DNA from: an uncultured Bacillales bacterium | GTDB lineage: Bacteria; Bacillota_I; Bacilli_A; RFN20; CAG-826 | DNA length: 34,927 bases | Reading direction: 5' to 3' | Assembly (NCBI GenBank): GCA_946622925.1 | Contig: CAMOQM010000001.1 | Span: 1 to 34,927 of the forward strand | Shown here: positions 663 to 12,352 of the stretch, in pieces | Position numbering within the stretch: position 1 is the first letter of the stretch | How the letters are laid out: each line of letters starts with the position of its first letter | Position numbers and translations under genes: made by a program | The notes under the pieces: generated by a model | What the model was told of the DNA's origin: nothing | Databases searched by the model: none | What the model saw: only the letters and a program-made list of their open reading frames with translations

Positions 663-1195
663 TCATCGGTTTCCGTTCTTCGAATAGGTCAGGCAGAGCA
701 GGACCCTCTTTCTGAACCTGTCGAAGTTGGTGCATCCGTTCGCGATCTTCTTCAGGGTCTTTATCTGGTTGTTGAGCCCCTCGGCGACCCCGTTGGAAAG
801 CCTGACGCCCATCTGGTTTTTGGCCAATCCGTTGGCTATCTGGGCCCTCCATTTTCGGCAGCTCCTGCCCACCGATTCGAGCAGCGGGCTCCCCGAGGAC
901 AGCAGCCTCGAGGCGACCCTCCCGATGAGGTCGGAGGCCTCCGTCCAGCTGCGGCACCTCCTGTTGCGGAGCATCTCCTGCATCGATGACCACGCCTCCC
1001 AAAGGGCCGGGGAGGTGCGGAGGCACATGAGGAGGATCTCGTGGAAGGGAAGGCCAGGCCGGTCCCCATGTGCTGGTAGTACCTGGCCGGGATCCTGGAT
1101 TCTCTTATCTGGAAGACCTTCCATTTCGATTTCATGAAGCCGTATTCCGGGGAGTCCCTGGGCAGCCATTTTTCATCGTTTATAAATACGTTCAA
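663..1195 (-). mobile_element. ISL3-family transposase relic: C-terminal ~180 codons only, frameshifted, N-terminal half missing
   Basis: ORF 663..1169(-) ends with SNGVAEGLNNQIKTLKKIANGCTNFDRFRKRVLL, the characteristic ISL3 transposase C-terminal motif. The preceding ISL3-like segment (MKSKWKVFQIRESRIP) is in a different frame (ORF 836..1195), implying a frameshift near 1050-1075. Full ISL3 transposases are roughly 400 aa or more, and nothing upstream of 1195 continues the gene. Confidence 0.7.
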
Positions 1196-1261: not shown

Positions 1262-3088
1262 ATGAAAAAGACTGTGCTTTGGTTTGTGGCGTTTATATTT
1301 CCGCTTTTATTTGGATGCTCTTCGAATGAATCTTCTGAGCCTGCTACGATAGTTTCTGTGGAAGGAGCGGAATTTAATGAAGAAGCAAAGAGCATCTGGC
1401 TTCTTGTCAATTCTAATCAAGGAGTTTCGTTGAATAATCTCATTAAGGTTTCTATCAATTCATCATGGCGATTATTTAAGGAAAAAACAGAATTATTTGA
1501 CAGGAACGTTTATAGTTCCGAACTCGAAGACGGAAACAACGCTTTTTCTATTGTTGTAGCTTCGCATGATGGACGATTTGAAAATACTTATAGTTTAATT
1601 ATTCATCGGTCTTTTCAAGCTTGGATTTCTTATGAATTTGAAGGCCAAAAGTTAGGGATGCAAAATGTCTTTACTGGCTTTAAGTTTAGCCTTCCGGGCT
1701 CCTATTATATTGAAGGCCATACGTTTTTATATTGGTGTTATGAAGGAAAAAGGGTAAATACCATTGTGCCTTTGGGCGATATCGCCGTGCAAGCTTTTGC
1801 ACCGGCAAATGATTATACTGTTGTGCTTAATCCGAATTTTGAAGGATGCCACGCGGATGCCATAACAATAAAGTATGGAGACAACTATTCATTACCATTT
1901 TTAGAAAGGCGTGGATATGAGTTTTTAGGATGGTTCCGTGACGATTCCTCTATTTCTTTTCCAATTTCCGGGATATGGAATTATGGAAATGGACTGACTT
2001 TAAATGCAAAATGGGAGCCGTTTTCTTATGCCATTTCTTATGCGCTAAATGGCGGGACGAATAATCCCGAAAATCCAAACTCATATACCGTTGAAAACAG
2101 GGCGGTGCTTGCTGAACCTACATGTAAATTTAAAACTTTCGATGGTTGGTATCTGGACGGTAAGAGAATTCGATTCATCCCAGAAGGAACAACTGGCGAA
2201 ATAAAATTAGAGGCGCTTTGGTCGCAAAATGACGTTCAGAAAGCCGAAGAAGAAGCCGCAAAGGTTGACAGAGAAAAACGCTTGGGAATCAGACCGGTTT
2301 TTTCCGACGATGGGAAAACCGTTACGTATGGCCTTTATCCTCAAAAACGCATCTGTGATGAAAAAACCATCGCTTCTTTGGAGGCTTTGCGAACGCCGCA
2401 CGAGCTTTATGAGGGTGAAAATGAATTTGTTTTTTTTGATGGCAATTACTATGTAGTTTTAAATATAAATTTTCGAGGATTGGGCGGAACTGTTTATTGG
2501 GAAGATGGATCGGAGTCTGGGCGATACGATTTCGCTAGCCACAAAGGGAACCTTGAATGGTTTATTTGCGAACCAATAAAGTGGATGGTATTGTCCAACT
2601 TTAATGGCGAGCTCTTTGTTGTATCGGAACGCATTCTAGACGCCTCTGTGTGGAATAATGTTCAAGTGTACAGTGGGGGCTATGAATTGTCTTATCTTAG
2701 ACTGTGGCTCAACGGATTCTATGAATCGGCTTTTAAGCTAGGAGACGATTACTCTTTGATTACTGAAGTAAACAACGGCCGAGGCGGAAGCGTTGACGAT
2801 AGAGTGTTTGTACTAAGTTCAAAGGATTTAAAGGATTATTTTACTGATAAAGAATCTAGGTGCGCCCAGACAACCGACTGGGCCAGAGCCAGAAAAACAA
2901 ACTATCAAAGGGCCAACTTCTTGGGAGATTATTGGGCCAGGTCCATATATAGTTATGAAGGTAGAGCCTATTCTTTGTCTGGGGAAGCGGTCGTTTATTC
3001 TTCGGGGAATATTGGAGAGGGTAATGGATCTCTCAATGACTGGTCTATGGGTGTTAGGCCGGCCATGCGAATTAGAATTGACAAATAG
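1262..3088 (+). CDS. Surface lipoprotein with Listeria-Bacteroides-type (Flg_new-like) repeats and a C-terminal DUF6273-like domain
   Basis: Signal peptide with lipobox MKKTVLWFVAFIFPLLFGC. Repeat signatures: GHTFLYWCYEGKRV, GYEFLGWFRDD, FDGWYLDGKRI. The C-terminal DYWARS...SMGVRPAMRI resembles the YWLRS...GVRPA signature of DUF6273. Confidence 0.65.
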   Translation: MKKTVLWFVAFIFPLLFGCSSNESSEPATIVSVEGAEFNEEAKSIWLLVNSNQGVSLNNLIKVSINSSWRLFKEKTELFDRNVYSSELEDGNNAFSIVVASHDGRFENTYSLIIHRSFQAWISYEFEGQKLGMQNVFTGFKFSLPGSYYIEGHTFLYWCYEGKRVNTIVPLGDIAVQAFAPANDYTVVLNPNFEGCHADAITIKYGDNYSLPFLERRGYEFLGWFRDDSSISFPISGIWNYGNGLTLNAKWEPFSYAISYALNGGTNNPENPNSYTVENRAVLAEPTCKFKTFDGWYLDGKRIRFIPEGTTGEIKLEALWSQNDVQKAEEEAAKVDREKRLGIRPVFSDDGKTVTYGLYPQKRICDEKTIASLEALRTPHELYEGENEFVFFDGNYYVVLNINFRGLGGTVYWEDGSESGRYDFASHKGNLEWFICEPIKWMVLSNFNGELFVVSERILDASVWNNVQVYSGGYELSYLRLWLNGFYESAFKLGDDYSLITEVNNGRGGSVDDRVFVLSSKDLKDYFTDKESRCAQTTDWARARKTNYQRANFLGDYWARSIYSYEGRAYSLSGEAVVYSSGNIGEGNGSLNDWSMGVRPAMRIRIDK

Positions 3089-3164: not shown

Positions 3165-4061
3165 GTGACACTTTATTTGATTGGCAATGGCTTCGACAGG
3201 TATCATGGTTTGCCGACCTTATATAAGGATTATGGTAGTTTTCTTTGTGGTGACGATCATGATAGATTCAATTGTTATTCTTTCGTTCGTGACGATGAAA
3301 AGGTTTGTTCTAGGGACCAGTTCATGAATTTTAAAAGTGATACCTGGGAACGCCTTGAAGACGCATTAAACATAGATATCAAAGAGCTTATGATTCAAAC
3401 GTTGGATGGTAGAAACGGGCTTGCCTGCGACGATATCAGTTTATATTTGGATTTCACTGGTAAACACTTGCGAGACTGGATTAATTCCATATCCGTTTCG
3501 GACGTTAAAAAGCAATTAGATTTTCTACCCAATTCTCTATTCATTACATTTAATTACACGCTAGTTTTAGAAGAAGTTTATAAAATAGCTGATGAAAGAA
3601 TCCTCCACGTTCACGGCAAAAAAGGCGACAAAATCCTTCAATTCGGAAATATGGAGTTTATGGCTTATGGAAATGACAAAGCAGAACAAATCATTTTTGA
3701 ATATATGCGGGCTAACCCAAGTATCGAATGCTCCGTTAAAGAAGCCCATGAATATTTATATTATGTCAAGGAGGCGTTTGGAAAAGACCCCAAATCAAAT
3801 TACTCGGCCATAAATCGTTTTCTTTCAAATAAGCAAATAGATTCAATTATTGTTTTAGGGCTTTCTTTGTCAAAACAAGATCAACCATATTTTACCGACA
3901 TTTTTATTCCAAAATTCGGCAATAAAAAATGGGTTGTGTCTTATTATGGGTCAGACGACTTAAAAAAGAAGAAGTCATTTTGTAAAGGAACCGGCCTAAA
4001 GTGCAGCTTTAAGACACTGGAAGAGGCTACGCAATGCCCGGGTACAGGTTGCCTGGAATAG
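3165..4061 (+). CDS. abiH: AbiH-family abortive-infection-like protein
   Basis: GTG start after AGAGAGGG. The N-terminus MTLYLIGNGFDRYHGLPTLYKDYGSFL matches the hallmark IGNGFD..HGL.T.Y.DF N-terminal motif of AbiH (PF14253). Internal ILHVHGKKGDKILQFGN also fits the family. Confidence 0.75.
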   Translation: MTLYLIGNGFDRYHGLPTLYKDYGSFLCGDDHDRFNCYSFVRDDEKVCSRDQFMNFKSDTWERLEDALNIDIKELMIQTLDGRNGLACDDISLYLDFTGKHLRDWINSISVSDVKKQLDFLPNSLFITFNYTLVLEEVYKIADERILHVHGKKGDKILQFGNMEFMAYGNDKAEQIIFEYMRANPSIECSVKEAHEYLYYVKEAFGKDPKSNYSAINRFLSNKQIDSIIVLGLSLSKQDQPYFTDIFIPKFGNKKWVVSYYGSDDLKKKKSFCKGTGLKCSFKTLEEATQCPGTGCLE

Positions 4062-4125: not shown

Positions 4126-4764
4126 TTATTGTAGTAAATCCACTATTGAACAGCCTAAAGCTTTGGATAGTTTTTTAAGAGTATCTACGCTGGCCTTGTT
4201 TATATCTTTATGCCTTTGCTCATACATTTGGATTGAGCGTAGATTGACGCCAGATAAAGCGGCTAATTCAGATTGGGAACAACCATATAATGTTCGGATG
4301 CGTTTTAGATTTGTTTCGCCTTGGTCTTCTTTGATTTTGCTATTGGCGATGTCTACGAATTTGGTAATGTCGGCTTCGTGAAGGGTGTAATAAAGTCTGA
4401 CCAATTCATCATATGGCAGGGCTTTGAAGATCCTAGCAAATCCGCAGTCGGCGATGAATTGGTAATAGGCAACGGCATAGCCGATCCAATATTCCTTTGA
4501 GCGGGAATAGTTTACCTTTGGTTCGACATTTATATCCTTATCGGTAGTTTCTTTGATTATATCGATGGCTAACTCTATTCCACTTTTGCCTTTGATAATG
4601 GCGACATCGGCTAGTTCTAGGCGTTTGCAAAAGCTGCTGACTAGGAAAAGATCAACGAAATCTTTCCCCGGCATGCCTAAAGAATTGACCGCGTAATCAA
4701 AAGCCTCGCCTAGCAGGCGCTGAGCTCTATTTCGATTTATTCCTTGGTAATCTTGGATCGTCAT
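4126..4764 (-). CDS. Partner protein of the DUF3990-like gene: N-terminal DUF3791-like region plus C-terminal XRE-type helix-turn-helix
   Basis: The C-terminal NLKRIRTLYGCSQSELAALSGVNLRSIQMYEQRHKDINKASVDTLKKLSKALGCSIVDLL is a textbook HTH_3/XRE domain. The N-terminal ~150 aa aligns with ORF 11867..12352 (KEYWIGYAVAYYQF vs EAMFWLGYIYRYISY; LPYDELVRLYYTLHEAD vs LPAKTLIKDYYVYHTQD). It overlaps the upstream gene by 38 nt. The DUF3791 name is from memory of the usual DUF3990 neighbour and is unverified. Confidence 0.7.
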   Translation of the reverse strand: MTIQDYQGINRNRAQRLLGEAFDYAVNSLGMPGKDFVDLFLVSSFCKRLELADVAIIKGKSGIELAIDIIKETTDKDINVEPKVNYSRSKEYWIGYAVAYYQFIADCGFARIFKALPYDELVRLYYTLHEADITKFVDIANSKIKEDQGETNLKRIRTLYGCSQSELAALSGVNLRSIQMYEQRHKDINKASVDTLKKLSKALGCSIVDLLQ

Positions 4765-5419
4765 TGGTGATTTTGTTCCCGATTATATTCTGAATATATA
4801 ACCCATCCTCTTCTTGCTCGAGGATATCCATATAAGCTTGATTGGCGGAATCATCCCTTCCTTTCCTAAGGATGTAATAGATGCTTTTATCGGCCGGTTC
4901 GGCCCCTTCGAAATGTATTTTGGAGAATGCGTATTCACTTTTGATTACGATTTGCTCGCCTAATTTCCCTAATTCCATGGCCTTGGAAAGTTGCTCCACC
5001 GTTATCGTGTTGTTTATGAAAGCCTCGGCATAATCGAAATATGAATCGTCGGCTCGATATCCAACGATTATGTCATAGGCATTTACGTTTATTCCGAAAT
5101 GTTCGCTCAGGTAGGCTTTTGCCCTTTTGGCACCTGGGTTATTAATATCGAATAAACGATGGTCGAGCAAAACGGCTATCCAATTGAGAATCGAGTAAGT
5201 GGGGGTGTTTAGATAGAGGATATTCAAACCTTCAGTTTCAAGGGTATAACGATTGGCAAAGCCATTGCTTAAGGATGAGATGGCCCACTCTTTCGCTAGT
5301 TCCTTGTTTTCGGTGCAATAAAAGCCAAGCCCGAAATCATTATGCTTTCGGCCAAGCCCAAAAACGGGCTTTTCGATGATTTTGCTGGAACCATGATAGA
5401 TGGTGATTTGTTTATTCAT
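4727..5419 (-). CDS. DUF3990-like protein (candidate effector/toxin)
   Basis: ITIYHGSSKIIEKPVFGLGRKHNDFGLGFYCTENKELAKEWA fits my recollection of the DUF3990 signature. It is clearly paralogous to aa ~79-284 of ORF 11016..11870 (YHGS/FHGS; GLGFY/GPGFY; IIVGYRADDSYF/IIAPIADNRMF; LGEQIVIKS/LGHQYVLKS). Confidence 0.7.
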   Translation of the reverse strand: MNKQITIYHGSSKIIEKPVFGLGRKHNDFGLGFYCTENKELAKEWAISSLSNGFANRYTLETEGLNILYLNTPTYSILNWIAVLLDHRLFDINNPGAKRAKAYLSEHFGINVNAYDIIVGYRADDSYFDYAEAFINNTITVEQLSKAMELGKLGEQIVIKSEYAFSKIHFEGAEPADKSIYYILRKGRDDSANQAYMDILEQEEDGLYIQNIIGNKITNDDPRLPRNKSK

Positions 5420-5439
5420 TTATACCTTCTTTCAGCAAT

Positions 5440-5467
5440 ACTATATCACTAGAGTGACATAGTTCAA
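5440..5467 (-). promoter_or_regulatory. Promoter with embedded inverted-repeat operator for the DUF3990-like operon
   Basis: On the minus strand: TTGAAC (plus 5462-5467), 16-nt spacer, TATAGT (plus 5440-5445). The imperfect inverted repeat CTATATCAC-taga-GTGACATAG (5441-5462, 1 mismatch) fills the spacer and overlaps the -10. An AAGAAGG RBS lies 5 nt before the ATG at 5419. Confidence 0.5.
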
Positions 5468-5627: not shown

Positions 5628-5900
5628 ATGGCAACCAAAAAGAAAGGATGTAGAGTGGATATTAGAATCTCAGAAAGCGACAAAGCCCTTTTGTACAAGG
5701 CCGCTGAAATAAGAAGACAAAGCCTAAGTTCCTATATCATTGGTGCCGCTACCAAGGCCGCGGAGAATGATATAGCCAACGAAAATATCATTTGGGTATC
5801 AGAAGAAGGTATGAAACGGATTGTTTCCATGATGGAAAATCCTCCTGAACCAAATGAAACTCTTAAGGAGTTAATGCGTGGAAATCATCTCGATAAATGA
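5628..5900 (+). CDS. DUF1778 (TacA-like, RHH) type II antitoxin
   Basis: 90 aa, with RVDIRISESDKALLYKAAEIRRQSLSSYIIGAA typical of DUF1778 antitoxins. It overlaps the downstream GNAT gene by 23 nt. Confidence 0.8.
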   Translation: MATKKKGCRVDIRISESDKALLYKAAEIRRQSLSSYIIGAATKAAENDIANENIIWVSEEGMKRIVSMMENPPEPNETLKELMRGNHLDK

Positions 5901-6381
5901 ATTTTCGGACAAAAAACAGTTTTTGGATTTTGACTGTGGCGAGCCGGCCTTGAATACATATTTAAGGAAATATGCCACCCAAAACGAAAGGACTGGGTAC
6001 GGCCGAACTTTTTTGGCTCTAGAAAACGGAAGGCTGATTGGCTTTTATACTCTTGTCGTGAGTTCGATGCAAAGAGATGGGCTCCAAACCAATCTGATCA
6101 AAAGATTGCCAAAATATCCAGTCCCTTGCATTTTAATAGCCAGACTTGCCGTCAATAAATCTGACCAAAAAAGGAAAGTCGGAAAGCAAATGCTATTTGA
6201 TGCTTTGAGAAAAGCCGTGCATATAGCGGATTATTGTGGAGTGGCTATGGTGGCGGTTGAATCTAAACCGGGAGCCGTCGAGTTTTACAAAGCTGCTGGC
6301 TTCGAATCGATAACCGATAACGGTTTGGTTTTCGCAATCCATATTAATGCGATTATCTCCGCCTTAGCAGGACAAAAATAG
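5878..6381 (+). CDS. GNAT-family acetyltransferase toxin (TacT-like)
   Basis: GTG start 7 nt after AAGGAG. FDCGEPALNTYLRKYATQNERTGYGRTFLAL...GFYTL and ILIARLAVNKSDQKRKVGKQMLFDAL match the TacT/GNAT toxin pattern. It is paired with DUF1778. Confidence 0.8.
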   Translation: MEIISINEFSDKKQFLDFDCGEPALNTYLRKYATQNERTGYGRTFLALENGRLIGFYTLVVSSMQRDGLQTNLIKRLPKYPVPCILIARLAVNKSDQKRKVGKQMLFDALRKAVHIADYCGVAMVAVESKPGAVEFYKAAGFESITDNGLVFAIHINAIISALAGQK

Positions 6382-6520: not shown

Positions 6521-6611
6521 TACGCTCGGACGTTAGTAAAAGGGATATTCCCTCATTTATTAACCCCGGCCTACGATACGCCGGGAAGTGTGTGAAAAAA
6601 GGAGAAACACC

Positions 6612-7031
6612 ATGCCAACCATTAACCAACTAGTTCGGCAGGGCCGCCAGTCCGCGGTCAAGAAATCCAAATCCCCTGCCTTAGGCAAGAGATGGAACTC
6701 GCTGAACAAAAAGTCGACCAGCCAGGCTTCCGCCCAAAAGCGCGGCGTCTGCACCCGTGTCGGCACCATGACTCCTAAGAAGCCGAACTCCGCCCTTAGG
6801 AAATACGCTCGTGTCCGTTTAAGCAATGGATACGAAGTCACCGCCTATATCGGTGGTGAAGGACACAACTTACAGGAGCACTCCACCGTCATGATCCGTG
6901 GCGGCCGTGTCAAAGACCTCCCTGGTGTCCGTTACCACATCATCCGCGGTACCCTTGACTGCGCCGGTATCGAAAAGCGTCGCCAAGGTCGCTCCCTCTA
7001 CGGCACCAAGAAGCCGAAAGAGAGCAAATAA
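6612..7031 (+). CDS. rpsL: 30S ribosomal protein S12
   Basis: [12 protein letters not shown]...[49 protein letters not shown]...[24 protein letters not shown] lies 6 nt upstream of the ATG at 6612, so the tracked start at 6588 is an upstream in-frame extension. Confidence 0.97.
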
Positions 7032-7049
7032 TGAAAGGAGAATAGAACC

Positions 7050-7520
7050 ATGCCAAGAAAAGGTGCTGTCGCCAAACGCGACGTATTACCAGATCCGGTT
7101 TATAACTCCAAACTCATCACCCGTTTGATCAACAGGGTCATGTTCGATGGCAAGCGCGGAACCGCCCAAACCATCATCTACAAGGCCTTTGCCAAGATCG
7201 AAGAGAAGACCGGCAAACCCGCGATGGACGTCTTCGCCACCGCGATCAAGAACATCATGCCAGAAGTCGAACTTAAGGTCCGTCGTATTGGCGCCGCCAA
7301 CTACCAGGTTCCTGTCGAAGTTTCGCAAGAACGCCGTCAGACCCTCGGCCTCCGCTGGCTCGTCACCTATTCCCGCCTCCGTGGTGAGAAGACCATGGAA
7401 GAAAAGCTCGCCGGTGAAATCATCGATGCCGCCAATGGCACCGGTGCTTCCATCAAGAAGAAGCAGGATGTCCACAAAATGGCCGAAGCTAACAAAGCCT
7501 ACGCCCATTATCGTTGGTAA
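7050..7520 (+). CDS. rpsG: 30S ribosomal protein S7
   Basis: [40 protein letters not shown]... is canonical S7, and it sits in the str operon position. Confidence 0.97.
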
Positions 7521-7532
7521 GGAGAATAAGCC

Positions 7533-9635
7533 ATGGCCGATAACGAAATCGATATCAAGCAGGCTGAGTCCTACGACCTTCCCCATACCCGTAATATCGG
7601 GATTATGGCCCACATCGACGCCGGTAAGACCACAACCACCGAGCGTATCCTCTATTACACTGGACGTTCCCACAAAATCGGTGAAGTCCACGAAGGTACC
7701 GCCACCATGGACTGGATGGCCCAAGAGCAAGAACGTGGTATCACCATCACCTCTTCCGCCACCACCTGTTTCTGGAAGGGCAATCGCTTCAACATCATCG
7801 ACACTCCGGGGCACGTCGACTTCACCGTCGAAGTCGAACGTTCTCTCCGTGTCCTCGACGGCGCGGTCACCGTTCTAGACTCCAAAAACGGCGTTGAGCC
7901 CCAGACCGAAACCGTCTGGCGCCAAGGCACTAAGTACAATGTCCCCAGAATCGTCTTCTGCAACAAGATGGACGCCACCGGGGCCGACTTCGATATGTGC
8001 GTCGCCTCCCTCCACGATAGGCTAGCCGCCAATGCCGCCGCCATCCAATACCCGATCGGCAAGGAATCCTATTTGAAGGGTTGCTGCGATATCATCGAAC
8101 GTAAAGCCTATGTTTATGGCGATGATAAGAAAGACGCTCCGACCGTCACCGAAATCCCCGCCGAACTCAAAGACAAGTGCGAAGAACTCCGTCTTATCCT
8201 TCTCGAAAAGCTCGCCGCCTTCGACGATGACCTCATGATGATGGTCCTCGAAGGTGAAGAACCCCCCGTCGAGATGATCAAGGCCACCATCCGTAAAGCC
8301 GTCTTGACCGGCACCTTCTTCCCGGTCCTCTGCGGATCCGCCTATAAGAATAAGTGCATTCAGCCCCTCCTCGACGCCGTCGTCGATTACCTCCCCAGCC
8401 CCTTAGACATCGCTGGTGAAAAAGGTACCCTCGATGGCAAGGAATACACCTGCGAAGCCACCGATGACAAACCCTTCGTTGGCTTAGCCTTCAAGATCGC
8501 CACCGACCCCTTCATCGGCCGTTTGGCTTATGTCCGTGTCTACCAAGGCGTCTTGAAATCCGGCTCCTACGTTTATAACTCCTCCAAGGGTGTTAAGGAA
8601 CGTATCGCCCGTTTGGTGTTAATGCACGCCAACCACCGTCAGGAAGTGGAGGCCCTCCACGCCGGTGAAATCGGCGCCGTCGTCGGCTTAAAGGCCTCGA
8701 CCACCGGTGACACCCTCGCCGATGAGAACCATCCAGTAATCCTAGAATCCCTCACCTTCCCCGAACCCGTTTTGGAGGAAGCGGTGGAACCCAAGACCAA
8801 AGCCGACCAGGAAAAGATGACCGCCGCTTTGATCAAATTAGCCGAAGAAGACCCGACCTTCCGCGTCCATACCGACGCTGACTCCGGACAGACCATCATC
8901 GCCGGTGTCGGTGAATTACAGCTCGACATCTTAGTCGACCGTATGCGCCGCGAATTCAAAGTCGACGTCAATGTCGGCGCCCCCCAAGTCAACTACCGCG
9001 AAACCATTCGCAAGACCGCCGAAGCCCAAGGCCGCTATGTCAAGCAGTCTGGTGGTCACGGCCAATATGGTGACGTTTGGATCCGCTTTGAACCCAACCC
9101 CGGCAAAGGCTTCGAATTCGTCGATGCCATCGTCGGTGGTGCCGTTCCTAAGGAATTCATCAAACCGACCCAGCAAGGTCTTGAGGATGCCTTAACCCGC
9201 GGCTTAGTCGCCGGCTATCCCGCCATCGACATCAAGGCCACCTTATATGATGGTTCTTACCACGATGTCGACTCCTCGGAAGCCGCCTATAAAGTCGCTG
9301 CCTCCTTGGCCCTTAAAGAAGCCGCCAAGAAGTGCGACCCCGTCATCCTCGAACCGATCATGAAAGTCGAGATCACCGTCCCCGAACAATATTACGGTGA
9401 CGTCATCGGCGACGTAGCCCGTCGTCGTGGTATCATGACCGGCGAAACCCAGCGTGGCAACGCCAAGCAAATCGACTGCGAAATCCCGCTTTCCGAAATG
9501 TTTGGTTACGTAACCGACCTACGCTCCCTCACCCAAGGCCGTGGCAACTTCACCATGCAATTCGATCATTATGGTGAAACCCCGCGCTTCATCCAGGACG
9601 AAATCATCAAAAAGTCGTCCCTGAGCAACCGCTAA
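7533..9635 (+). CDS. fusA: Elongation factor G
   Basis: 700 aa with [36 protein letters not shown]. Confidence 0.97.
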
Positions 9636-9720
9636 TTTCCAATACTTTGTATTGCTAATCGCGGCTAAAGGCTCTATCATTTAAAAGCCAATTTGCACAA
9701 CCTATTGGAGGAAAATCACA

Positions 9721-10914
9721 ATGGCAAAAGAAAAATTCAATCGTGATCGCGTCCACGTTAACGTCGGCACCATCGGCCACGTCGACCACGGCAAGACCAC
9801 CCTCACCTCTGGCATCACCCACGTCCTCGCGATGAAGGGTCTAGCCAAAGATATGGCTTACGCCAACATAGACGCCACCCCTGAAGAAAGGGCTCGTGGT
9901 ATCACCATCAACTCCGCCCACGTCGAGTATGCGACCGAAAAGCGTCACTACGCCCACGTCGACTGCCCGGGCCACGCCGACTACATCAAGAACATGATCA
10001 CCGGCGCTGCTCAAATGGATGCCGCTATCCTCGTCGTCGCTGCCACTGATGGTGTTATGCCCCAGACCCGTGAGCACGTCTTGCTCGCCCGTCAGGTCGG
10101 CGTTCCTCAGATCATCGTCTTCCTCAACAAGTGCGACATGGTCGATGACCCCGAACTCATTGATCTCGTCGAAATGGACGTCCGTGATCTACTCAACTCC
10201 TACGAATTCCCTGGCGATGACACCCCCGTCATCCGCGGTTCTGCCTTAAAGGCCTGCGAAGCCAAGGACCTCAATGACCCCGCTTGCAAGTGCATCGAAG
10301 AGCTCATGGAAGCCCTCGATACCTACATCCCCGACCCCGTCCGTGACGATGCCAAGCCCTTCCTTCTCCCGATCGAAGACGTCATGACCATCTCTGGTCG
10401 TGGCACCGTTGTCACCGGCCGTGTCGAACGTGGTGTCATCAAAATCAACGACGAAGCTGAAATCGTCGGTATCCGTCCCACCCAAAAGACTGTCGTCACT
10501 GGTCTTGAAATGTTCCGTAAGACCCTTGACTTCGCTCAAGGCGGCGACAACATCGGTGCCCTTCTCCGTGGTATCACCCATGACCAGGTCGAACGTGGCC
10601 AAGTCCTCGCCAAACCCGGCTCCATCGTCCCCCACGACAAGTTCACCGCTACCACCTATATCTTGAAGAAAGAAGAAGGTGGACGTCATACCCACTTCTT
10701 AAACGGCTATCGTCCTCAATTCTTCTTCCGTACCACCGACATCACCGGTACCATCACCCTACCTGCTGGCACCGACATGGTCATGCCTGGTGACAACGTT
10801 ACCTTCACCGTCGAGCTCATCCACCCGATCGCCATGGAAAAGGGAACCAAGTTCTCCATCCGTGAAGGTGGCCGCACCGTTGGCGCTGGCACCGTTGCCG
10901 ACATTCTTCACTAA
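9721..10914 (+). CDS. tuf: Elongation factor Tu
   Basis: 397 aa with [26 protein letters not shown]. Confidence 0.98.
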
Positions 10915-10934: not shown

Positions 10935-10960
10935 AGCCTCGCTATATGCGGGGCTTTTTC
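10935..10960 (+). terminator. Rho-independent terminator of the str operon
   Basis: AGCCTCGC (10935-10942) / GCGGGGCT (10948-10955) with one G-U pair, loop TATAT, then TTTTT (10956-10960). Confidence 0.7.
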
Positions 10961-10974
10961 GTTGCCTGCAAAAC

Positions 10975-11009
10975 TTGGTATACCAAATTTGGTATGGTAA
11001 GTTTATAAT
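10975..11009 (+). promoter_or_regulatory. 12-bp perfect palindrome plus extra half-site and -10 box upstream of the HTH-DUF3990 gene
   Basis: TTGGTATACCAA (10975-10986) is self-complementary. A third TTGGTAT half-site is at 10989-10995 and TATAAT at 11004-11009. The ATG at 11016 lies only 7 nt after the -10. Confidence 0.5.
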
Positions 11010-11015
11010 TGAGGC

Positions 11016-11870
11016 ATGGAACTAAAAAACTTCGATTTAAAAAGTGATCTACTGATTTTCATGGATTCCAATCAATATTCCATTGAAGATGTCTCCTTGG
11101 ATACCGGATTGCCCGTTTCCACAATCGAGAACATTTTGCTTGGTAAAGGCGGTGCATCGCCTTTGATTTTGGAATGCTGTTACCAATGTTTCCATAAAAG
11201 GGGCCTGGCCTTAAATTCTGCCAAAGAGGAAATTTGGTTGGAAAATTATGGGAAGACCTTGCTTTTTCATGGTTCGAAGGACGGCTTGACTTCTATCACC
11301 CCAAATGGATCTAGATCGGATTGCGATTTAGGCCCAGGGTTTTACCTTGGGGAATCTTATCAAACGGTCGGTTTGTTCGTATATCAATACCCCAGTAGTT
11401 CAGTTTATCCGTTTTTGTTAGATGAAAGCGAGCTAAAAATAGAAAAATTAGATTGTGACCTTTCTTGGATGATTGCCGTGGCTTATTATCGAAGCAAAAT
11501 CAAAGAATTTGGCAATCACAATATGGTTAAAAAGGTTTTGGACCGCTTTGTGGGGGCCGATGTTATCATTGCTCCCATCGCCGATAATCGAATGTTCTAC
11601 GTCATGCGCCAATTCACGGAGGGCGAAATCACCGATTTAGAAGCTTTGCATTGTTTGTCCGCTTCGGGGCTAGGCCATCAATATGTTCTAAAAAGCCAAA
11701 AAGCCATCGACCACTTAACTAGTTTGGACCGCCTCTATATCTGTAGCGCCGAACGGGAACTATTTGATAGGAATGCCATGGAAAGAAGCAAGGTTATCGA
11801 TGCCAAACTTAAATTGGCAAAACGAGAATTCCGGGGCCAAGGCAACTATATTGAGGATATTTTTGGATGA
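11016..11870 (+). CDS. Fusion protein: N-terminal HTH-like domain plus DUF3990-like domain
   Basis: aa ~10-60 (LLIFMDSNQYSIEDVSLDTGLPVSTIENILLGK) looks like an XRE-type HTH. aa ~79-284 are paralogous to ORF 4727..5419 (LLFHGSKDG...DLGPGFYLGES...VIIAPIADNRMFY...LGHQYVLKS). Confidence 0.7.
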   Translation: MELKNFDLKSDLLIFMDSNQYSIEDVSLDTGLPVSTIENILLGKGGASPLILECCYQCFHKRGLALNSAKEEIWLENYGKTLLFHGSKDGLTSITPNGSRSDCDLGPGFYLGESYQTVGLFVYQYPSSSVYPFLLDESELKIEKLDCDLSWMIAVAYYRSKIKEFGNHNMVKKVLDRFVGADVIIAPIADNRMFYVMRQFTEGEITDLEALHCLSASGLGHQYVLKSQKAIDHLTSLDRLYICSAERELFDRNAMERSKVIDAKLKLAKREFRGQGNYIEDIFG

Positions 11871-12352
11871 AAGAGTTAGACGGCAACGGTTTGCACCTAT
11901 GCAAATATCAAGGTGAAATATTCGGAGAATCGACGGAACGATTAAAATGCTCCAGTTTGGTTTTTTGCCGAAGATTCCAAAAATCCAAGCTAGCCAGATT
12001 ACTAGATTATGGCTGATATAGCCTTTCCCTGGATGTCGATGAGGCTTTTCAAATGCTTTCTTCCCAATTCGGGGAATCGGATTATGGCAAAGACAAATAC
12101 CCATCCGAAGCCATGTTTTGGCTTGGCTATATTTATCGCTATATCTCCTATACCAGGGAGTGTCCCACTAAGTTGGTGCTTAAATTGCTTCCGGCCAAAA
12201 CCTTGATTAAGGATTACTATGTTTACCACACCCAGGATGAGGAGTGGTGCCTTAGGTCGTGGTGCGAAAGGTTTGGGCTTAGCAACGACGACTTCGACAA
12301 AAAAGCCCGTTTAAAGAGATTGCTGCTAGCCCGTTATGCGTCATTTCTTTAA
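11867..12352 (+). pseudogene. Partner (DUF3791-like) gene interrupted by a single in-frame TGA at 12014-12016
   Basis: The ATG at 11867 overlaps the upstream stop (ATGA). The frame reads MKELDGNGLHLCKYQGEIFGESTERLKCSSLVFCRRFQKSKLARLLDYG-TGA-YSLSLDVDEAFQMLSSQFGESDYGKDKYPSEAMFWLGYIYRYISY... to TAA at 12350-12352. Both halves align along the N-terminal region of ORF 4126..4764. Confidence 0.65.

Follow-up and report, generated by a model that had tools for sequence, protein, structure and literature searches.

Several bacterial conflict systems pair a toxin of the ADP-ribosyltransferase (ART) superfamily, which uses NAD+, with a dedicated neutralizer. Examples are DarTG, ParST/MbcTA (also known as Xre-RES), and CmdTAC. 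The antitoxin of Xre-RES systems carries a helix-turn-helix (HTH) domain of the XRE type, and some ART-toxin systems act in phage defense. Here we describe a two-gene operon, which we will call module 1, from contig CAMOQM010000001.1 of an uncultured Bacillales bacterium. The window that we analyzed is the whole contig (34,927 nucleotides). Module 1 encodes a protein from the family DUF3990 (protein A) and a partner protein with an HTH domain (protein B). We propose, with a probability of roughly 55%, that module 1 is an autoregulated toxin-antitoxin (TA) or abortive-infection-type module. A second, rearranged copy (module 2) lies further along the contig.

Two kinds of prior information bear on module 1. 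First, Pfam lists DUF3990 (PF13151) in its ART clan (PMC7955679). In some Rhs effectors of type VI secretion systems (T6SS), DUF3990 also occupies the C-terminal position of the toxin, where it is the sole recognizable domain; these effectors are followed by a downstream immunity gene (PMC4524185; PMC10763514; PMC12165300). Second, the PADLOC database includes a candidate phage-defense system, PDC-M42, that contains DUF3990. PDC-M42 is one of 145 candidates that were identified by "guilt by embedding," as genes that lie within BREX, DISARM, or type I restriction systems, and its definition is the cassette FAM_00403>>FAM_03189>>FAM_00360 (Payne et al. 2024, bioRxiv 10.1101/2024.01.29.577857). 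PDC-M42 is the name of a gene set, not of a mechanism. Between them, Pfam's ART clan and PADLOC's PDC-M42 had already put both the relationship to ARTs and the candidacy for defense or TA on record at the database level.

Both proteins of module 1 match PDC-M42: A is similar to the PDC-M42A model (E = 1.1e-40) and residues 19-135 of B are similar to the PDC-M42B model (E = 2.4e-6). (A also matches the DUF3990 models of two other PADLOC candidates, PDC-M10 and PDC-M13.) For comparison, the pair on plasmid pTS1 of Treponema saccharophilum is a near-perfect archetype of PDC-M42, with E = 3e-109 for A and 3e-51 for B. But PDC-M42 is a cassette of three families, whereas module 1 comprises two genes: the operon contains no third gene and has no match to the PDC-M42C model. 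The HTH that is fused to B may stand in for the third family. We consider module 1 to be a diverged relative of PDC-M42 with an HTH fused to B.

A preliminary description of this DNA reported a two-gene operon with a 38-nucleotide overlap, and the open reading frames bear this out. Gene A (4727..5419, minus strand; identified from its reading frame and its Pfam match) encodes 230 amino acids. Gene B (4126..4764, minus strand) lies directly downstream and encodes 212 amino acids. The two genes overlap out of frame at 4727..4764, which suggests that their translation is coupled.

The preliminary description proposed to check if the two genes co-occur in other genomes. We searched for homologs, using one genome per species, which gave 143 related stretches; we kept loci from 80 species. 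These include Lachnospiraceae, Oscillospiraceae, Ruminococcus, Erysipelotrichaceae, Negativicutes, Enterococcus, and Succinivibrionaceae. In 79 of the 80 loci, a full-length homolog of B (51-61% identity) is encoded directly downstream of A and overlaps it. The other locus stops at the edge of its contig, so the pairing holds in 79 of 79 informative loci. A is more conserved than B, with 62-74% identity across the 80 loci.

We did not find a fixed third gene or a conserved neighbor in the flanks of these 80 loci. The 137 neighboring reading frames contain 172 Pfam families, each of which occurs five times or fewer. As the surrounding genes have no relation to each other from one locus to the next, it is the gene pair itself that is conserved. 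We take module 1 to be a self-contained cassette that is probably horizontally mobile. More broadly, DUF3990 genes are found on 70 plasmid records, chiefly from Bacteroides and Clostridium, and these plasmid genes often have DUF3791 and another small protein beside them, as in PDC-M13. The combination of DUF3990 and the partner is very common in the microbiomes of the gut and the rumen: at 90% identity, there are over 8,000 clusters of A and 4,591 clusters of B.

The pair is accompanied by a conserved promoter element. Scanning for a sigma-70-like consensus, we found a promoter-like site at 5467..5440 (minus strand), which consists of TTGAAC, a 16-nucleotide spacer, and TATAGT with an extended -10 TG. 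A TTGAC...TATAAT arrangement is likewise found upstream of the orthologs from the 80 species. The preliminary description had noted an inverted repeat in the promoter of module 1, between the -35 and -10 boxes. The location of the repeat (5441..5462) was right. However, the arms, CTATATCAC and CTATGTCAC (the latter as its reverse complement), match at 8 of 9 positions and not at all 9, and the repeat does not lie wholly between the two boxes, as its right arm extends into the -10 hexamer. At the core of the repeat is a 16-bp palindromic putative operator, TATCAC-N4-GTGACA (5444..5459), which overlaps the -10 box and differs at one position from the consensus of the family, TATCAC-N4-GTGATA.

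By itself, a single imperfect repeat could be due to chance. Within the 150 nucleotides upstream of A, however, 72 of the 80 loci have the exact consensus TATCAC-N4-GTGATA and 77 have it with no more than one mismatch, while the remaining 745 kb of these loci contain just 2 exact copies. The conservation of the repeat is thus far beyond chance. A TTGAC -35 box comes before the main site, which overlaps the -10 box (GTGATATAAT), and in 26 of the 80 loci, there is a second site about 50 nucleotides further upstream. We conclude that TATCAC-N4-GTGATA is a conserved predicted operator that overlaps the extended -10 box and that has been kept with the gene pair across 80 species. Because the putative operator overlaps the -10 box in 77 of the 80 loci, autoregulation of the A-B operon, which the preliminary description had proposed from the TA-like layout, is strongly supported by comparative sequence analysis. 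The HTH of B is the obvious candidate to bind this site. The hexamer TATCAC is also the consensus half-site of the OR and OL operators of phage lambda; the half-sites of module 1 are spaced by N4, which gives a 16-bp site. To our minds, what is new here is that we quantified how well the pair and its operator are conserved.

We turn to the proteins. A matches the entire Pfam model of DUF3990 (positions 1-152 of 152; E = 1.4e-43; 148.6 bits, versus a cutoff of 32.2 bits). It has a divergent ART-fold domain at residues 5-170, which is followed by a helical C-terminal extension. An AlphaFold model of A, built on 60 sequences from two subfamilies, has a predicted local distance difference test score (pLDDT) of 90 and a predicted template modeling score (pTM) of 0.85. 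In line with the ART-like fold that the preliminary description had suggested looking for, this model matches ART folds only. When we compared it to PDB with Foldseek, the top 50 hits were all ART domains of the H-Y-E clade (the PARP/diphtheria-toxin clade), including PARP1, PARP2, PARP4, tankyrases, diphtheria toxin, Chelona toxin, and SAIP (best E = 3e-3, probability up to 0.99). Among the viral structures in BFVD, there were four matches with E < 1e-3. The top match was an unnamed protein of 202 amino acids (E = 1e-7; TM score of 0.52-0.59), and next in rank were several ART-PolyVal domains (best E = 2.3e-4) and viral PARP-like proteins. A search of the sequence of A against the PDB chains found nothing at E ≤ 10.

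The sequence motifs of A fit with this fold. The preliminary description pointed to three motifs, which are indeed present and shared with the second copy at 11016 (there as FHGS, GFYLG, and GHQYVLKS), and their order was said to recall the H-Y-[EDQ] signature of ARTs. In the family profile of A, l-f-H-G-S and f-G-x-G-f-Y align with LFHGS and FGAGIYFAE of tankyrase, albeit weakly (E = 0.2-0.5), which agrees with that order. In the AlphaFold model, H9-G10-S11 are at the end of a strand (residues 4-11) and Y34 is inside another strand (residues 33-36). Of the three signature residues, H9 was numbered correctly before; the tyrosine is Y34 rather than Y33, and the glutamine is Q156 rather than Q165.

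Across all of the types of DUF3990 that we compared, which include the forms of 160 amino acids from plasmids of Clostridium and Phocaeicola, the invariant residues are H9, G10, D28, G30, F33, Y34, W80, R88, D116, A123, L153, and Q156. So the glutamine that was expected at the third position of the signature is invariant. The preceding position (155) is glutamate in A's subfamily, but it can be E, H, N, D, I, Y, or K across the family. A has motifs 1 and 2 of the ARTs and it appears to lack motif 3, which is an acidic catalytic residue (Glu or Asp, such as E988 of PARP) at the start of the penultimate strand. The minimal core of DUF3990 is about 150-160 amino acids. As judged from the structural model, A probably has a divergent fold that resembles PARP, diphtheria toxin, and ART-PolyVal, with an invariant H-Y-Q triad. 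The present analysis adds that the Gln-type triad extends across the entire family.

Protein B has two parts. The preliminary description placed a XRE-type HTH at the end of B, and residues 153-210 (4135..4308, minus strand) do match HTH_3 (E = 8.7e-11) and resemble the structures of XRE repressors. The AlphaFold model of B is all-helical (pLDDT of 86). With Foldseek, the whole protein matched other structures only through the HTH (the C-terminal ~60 residues), which superposes on C.AhdI, C.BclI, CapH, HigA2, SinR, and 434 Cro, with TM scores (relative to the target) of 0.6-0.86.

The rest of B (residues 1-147; 4324..4764, minus strand) is an all-helical domain of the PDC-M42B family and is a putative A-binding neutralizer. 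For this domain, we found only noise in Pfam at E ≤ 1 (DUF2682 and Imm53), and no relatives among the sequences in PDB. It nevertheless belongs to a large family, with 881 representative clusters at E ≤ 1e-3. The family has two main forms, a standalone form of ~145-160 amino acids and a form of ~210 amino acids with an HTH. In rarer fusions, the domain is joined to a PHD_like antitoxin DNA-binding domain (P0497) or to an HTH and an MNT-type nucleotidyltransferase, similar to PDC-S09 of PADLOC (P0509). The domain accompanies DUF3990 with or without an HTH; for instance, a locus from Treponema (L108) lacks any DNA-binding domain. Type II antitoxins are typically built in this way, with a modular domain that binds to interchangeable DNA-binding domains in the chain and partners the toxin. 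(Two proteins, P0419 and P0522, combine part of DUF3990 with the partner domain in one chain; we did not use them as evidence of fusion, since a frameshift in the 38-nucleotide overlap would yield the same product.) To summarize what is new about B, its N-terminal domain defines a large family without an entry in Pfam, whose members are standalone or are fused to various DNA-binding domains.

Among diverse standalone homologs of the N-terminal domain (~31-50% identity), the invariant residues are G62, E64, W93, Y125, H129, and E130, and H129-E130 are within a Y-x3-H-E motif. These residues raise the question of whether the domain is an enzyme. Hydrolases serve as the antitoxins to ART toxins such as DarT, so B might remove a modification that A adds to its target, as in DarTG; the N-terminal domain would then be a type IV-like antitoxin that is fused to an autoregulatory HTH. 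The invariant polar residues (E64 and H129-E130), along with G62, W93, and Y125, would fit an active site as well as they fit an interface. However, the domain is small and all-helical, and neither Pfam nor the sequences of PDB revealed any resemblance to macrodomains, NADAR, or ARH hydrolases. Also, where the B family has H-E-A, the partners in module 2 have H-T-Q, so the glutamate is not retained throughout the wider family. Overall we think it unlikely that B is an enzyme of this kind.

If module 1 is instead a TA or abortive-infection-type module, then it might work as follows. A and then B are expressed from one predicted promoter. A dimer of B would bind the operator via its HTH and repress the operon, and the N-terminal domain of B would bind A and block it, with translational coupling to balance the two proteins. 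If B were degraded or its synthesis were stopped, for instance by phage infection or by loss of the element, A would be freed. Free A would use NAD+ to ADP-ribosylate an essential macromolecule, which would arrest growth. Because the usual catalytic glutamate is replaced by an invariant glutamine, we infer that the acceptor is more likely to be a strong nucleophile, such as a phosphate or base of a nucleic acid, with chemistry similar to that of Tpt1 or DarT, than a protein side chain. More tentatively, DUF3990 proteins in general could be NAD+-dependent, Gln-based enzymes that ADP-ribosylate the phosphate ends or bases of nucleic acids instead of proteins, and together with DUF3791-like helical neutralizers they could form a single, very large superfamily of ART-based TA or defense systems (PDC-M10, PDC-M13, PDC-M42, and the Rhs C-terminal toxins), in which the HTH is on the antitoxin, on the toxin, or in a separate gene. 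We regard this broader proposal as possible but doubtful.

Module 2 shows a different assembly of the same parts. Its first gene (11016..11870, plus strand) encodes A2, a protein of 284 amino acids with a diverged N-terminal HTH fused to DUF3990 (residues 83-235; E = 4.4e-23, 82.1 bits). A homolog with 50% identity (P0243) has HTH_3 at residues 11-54, and the family profile of A2 matches the HTH of CylR2. A2 retains all of the invariants of the DUF3990 family. The next gene (11867..12352, plus strand; 161 codons) encodes a homolog of the N-terminal domain of B. In a comparison of the two partner families with hhalign (alignment A5 for the B domain and A6 for the A2 partner), the probability was 96.3% (E = 1.7e-9), and the PDC-M42B model matches an intact ortholog of the module 2 partner (E = 8e-5). 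All of the relatives of A2 that we examined are followed by a protein of 157-164 amino acids, with a 4-nucleotide overlap and without a match in Pfam. Because HTH, DUF3990, and the helical partner are assembled in two ways, we consider DUF3990 and its partner to be the functional core and the HTH to be a regulatory add-on.

Upstream of A2, a palindrome, TTGGTATACCAA (10975..10986), lies just before a -10 box (TATAAT, 11004..11009) and is a putative operator for the HTH of A2. Three related loci (L087, L090, and L091) have a palindrome at the equivalent position, about -45 from the ATG, with a different sequence. Between the upstream gene tuf and module 2, there is also a terminator-like hairpin (10936..10959; GCCTCGC-TATAT-GCGGGGC, then TTTTT), which directly follows tuf and divides the str operon from module 2.

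The partner gene of module 2 has an in-frame TGA (12014..12016), downstream of which there is an open reading frame of 99 amino acids (12053..12352). The corresponding codon is glycine in L093, L094, and L095; it is GGA in contigs whose partner proteins are 98% identical, and likewise in a related species. We rejected the possibility that this TGA encodes tryptophan (genetic code 4): TGA ends 4 of the 28 genes in the window, so it is an ordinary stop codon in this organism, and the relatives have glycine. A rearranged second module with a truncated partner gene is another new observation.

An intact A2 beside a broken partner would be harmless if DUF3990 proteins were not toxins, and we considered whether A might be a regulated ART that acts on a small molecule. 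In this scenario A would inactivate an antibiotic or another xenobiotic, as the rifampin ART Arr does, and B would be a ligand-sensing repressor, with a helical sensor and an HTH that binds DNA. A repressor with an operator in the promoter is the standard layout for inducible resistance; the DUF3990 core of ~150-160 amino acids is comparable in size to Arr; and DUF3990 is spread horizontally and found on plasmids. But the partner accompanies DUF3990 even in the absence of a DNA-binding domain, as in the Treponema locus and the standalone forms, and in module 2 the HTH is on the enzyme, although one would expect a sensor-repressor to retain the part that binds DNA. The presence of DUF3990 at the toxin position of Rhs proteins and the fusion of the partner to antitoxin-type domains also argue against a role in resistance, which we consider improbable.

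The genomic setting differs between the two modules. Module 1 is in a stretch of low GC content (37-42%, versus 46.6% for the entire window), and this stretch is directly upstream of rpsL. By comparison, the str operon itself (rpsL-rpsG-fusA-tuf, 6588..10914) has 55% GC. The EF-Tu and EF-G of this contig share protein clusters with close relatives that carry the names Candidatus Enteromonas sp. and Bacilli bacterium. Besides module 1, the low-GC stretch includes a predicted surface protein of 608 amino acids with Listeria-Bacteroides repeats and DUF6273 (1262..3088, plus strand). An abortive-infection gene of the AbiH family (3165..4061, plus strand; E = 2e-36 in Pfam and 8e-22 for PADLOC's AbiH) is convergent with module 1. 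A TacA antitoxin and a TacT-like acetyltransferase toxin of the GNAT family (5628..5900 and 5878..6381, plus strand, with a 23-nucleotide overlap) are divergent from it. Near the end of the contig, where the accessory region has its outer edge, is a fragment of an ISL3-family transposase that retains the C-terminal part only (663..1169, minus strand). Contigs from the same species share the arrangement of module 1, TacAT, and rpsL. In a related species, the site of module 1 contains a remnant of TacA (L099) and unrelated genes instead of module 1, and module 2 is kept between tuf and pfk. Because the related species that lacks module 1 retains module 2, we consider module 1 to be accessory and module 2 to be conserved in the lineage.

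The stability of module 2 suggests another alternative, which is that DUF3990 proteins are housekeeping or regulatory enzymes. Such an enzyme would use NAD+ to repair or modify nucleic acids, much as Tpt1 does for RNA; the attached repressor would set its level and it would have no role in conflict. A Gln-type triad that lacks the glutamate of the transferases is consistent with this idea. So are the stable synteny of module 2 by the str operon in two lineages, with 78% protein identity, and the tolerance of a truncated partner gene. On the other hand, module 1 is absent from the same site in the related species, the 80 species have the pair in unrelated contexts (with 62-74% identity across phyla), and DUF3990 is found on plasmids as well. 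Because a scattered distribution among accessory regions and plasmids is typical of mobile conflict genes and not of housekeeping genes, we doubt strongly that module 1 is a housekeeping enzyme.

The proposal that module 1 is a TA or abortive-infection-type module draws on several further lines of evidence: the precedent of Rhs effectors that have DUF3990 in place as the toxin domain, the modular build of the partner, the shuffling of domains in module 2, the location near AbiH, TacAT, and the ISL3 remnant, and the matches to both PDC-M42A and PDC-M42B. There are also observations that weigh against it. The similarity of A to the ARTs of known structure is weak in absolute terms (TM scores of 0.27-0.36 and a best E of 3e-3). 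The canonical catalytic glutamate is absent and the invariant residue is Q156; changes from Glu to Gln normally cripple ART transferases. In module 2, an intact DUF3990 gene lies beside a partner gene with a premature TGA, which is unexpected for a lethal toxin and is the main observation that does not fit. With its conserved location between tuf and pfk in two lineages, module 2 resembles a domesticated gene more than it does a selfish cassette. Although some of the orthologous loci adjoin type I or type IV restriction genes, SoFic, PbeA, or PDC-S01, defense genes are only a minority of the neighbors. Carriage by phages is rare: we found matches in 7 of 50,697 phage records, all of which are unannotated fecal contigs, and in 1 contig from IMG/VR, which implies that the cassette is not mainly phage-borne. 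Finally, our search of the literature on DUF3990, PF13151, and DUF3791 did not find any functional study or experiment, in agreement with what the preliminary description had said about DUF3990.

If A is an active NAD+-dependent toxin, then it would represent a new, Gln-type family of ARTs in bacterial conflict, beside the small set of DarT, RES, and CmdT, and a function could be assigned to the domain that several T6SS Rhs effectors carry at their toxin position. Our results also provide a domain definition for a partner family that is missing from Pfam, and the shared DUF3990 core links three of PADLOC's candidate systems. Experiments could make use of the conserved operator (16 bp) and of the partner's modular domain. 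The family of DUF3990 and its partner is abundant and should be easy to test, although a role in conflict would not surprise a specialist.

How does module 1 compare to the known types of systems? As in type II TA systems generally, module 1 is a conserved, adjacent, and overlapping operon pair (79 of 79 loci), and it has both a DNA-binding domain on the partner and a palindromic putative operator in the promoter. In its organization, module 1 is reminiscent of MqsR-MqsA and HigB-HigA, in which the toxin gene comes first and the antitoxin has an N-terminal part that binds the toxin and a C-terminal XRE-type HTH that acts on a palindrome in the promoter. The HTH region of B has a sub-threshold match to the MqsA model TIGR03830 (E = 5.6e-6), and its fold matches HigA2. 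But MqsR and HigB are RNases with the RelE fold, while A has a predicted ART fold, and the zinc domain of MqsA is unrelated to the N-terminal domain of B.

PDC-M13 (DUF3791, DUF3990, and a small protein) and PDC-M10 share the DUF3990 core and its invariant residues with module 1, and they also have small helical partners whose genes overlap the DUF3990 gene. They differ in that the partners have 75 amino acids and are encoded both before and after DUF3990. DUF3791 and the N-terminal domain of B have a Y-x2-L-H-T-Q motif in common, which only hints at homology. We treat this relationship as a lead, as the E-values from hhalign were 0.14-0.42 for single sequences and 6e-4 (with a probability of 28%) for small alignments. 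On a 7.6-kb mobilizable plasmid of Phocaeicola vulgatus (L097), a protein of 149 amino acids that is annotated as DUF3791 (2061..2510) is encoded directly upstream of DUF3990. It is a fusion of the two small partner families of PDC-M13, with an M13C-like N-terminal half and a DUF3791 C-terminal half, and its C-terminal L-H-T-Q-D-x-E-Y resembles the Y-H-T-Q-x-E-E-W of the partners in module 2.

ART-PolyVal domains are among the better-scoring named matches of A in the viral structures, and in the Rhs proteins DUF3990 itself is in the position of the toxin. Those domains are parts of giant proteins that are secreted or injected, whereas A is small and cytoplasmic and is encoded together with a repressor-partner of its own.

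Lastly, we compared module 1 to the characterized systems that use ART toxins. Module 1 does not belong to DarTG: A and B have no match to DarT (DUF4433) or Macro in Pfam, and B is all-alpha. Nor does it belong to Xre-RES, in which a RES-domain toxin is paired with an antitoxin that has its Xre HTH at the N-terminus and DUF2384 at the C-terminus: there is no match to RES or DUF2384, and the HTH of B is C-terminal. (B is below the threshold for the Xre-like-HTH family, with 16.7 bits versus a cutoff of 25.8 bits, and E = 0.009.) Xre-RES does resemble module 1 in that there is a XRE-type HTH on the partner of the toxin, but the order of the genes and the position of the HTH are reversed, and the triad in module 1 is H-Y-Q. 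With DarTG, ParST/MbcTA, and CmdTAC, module 1 would share an ART-fold toxin and a dedicated neutralizer. Relative to the characterized systems, then, we view module 1 as a variant on the theme of an ART toxin with a neutralizer.

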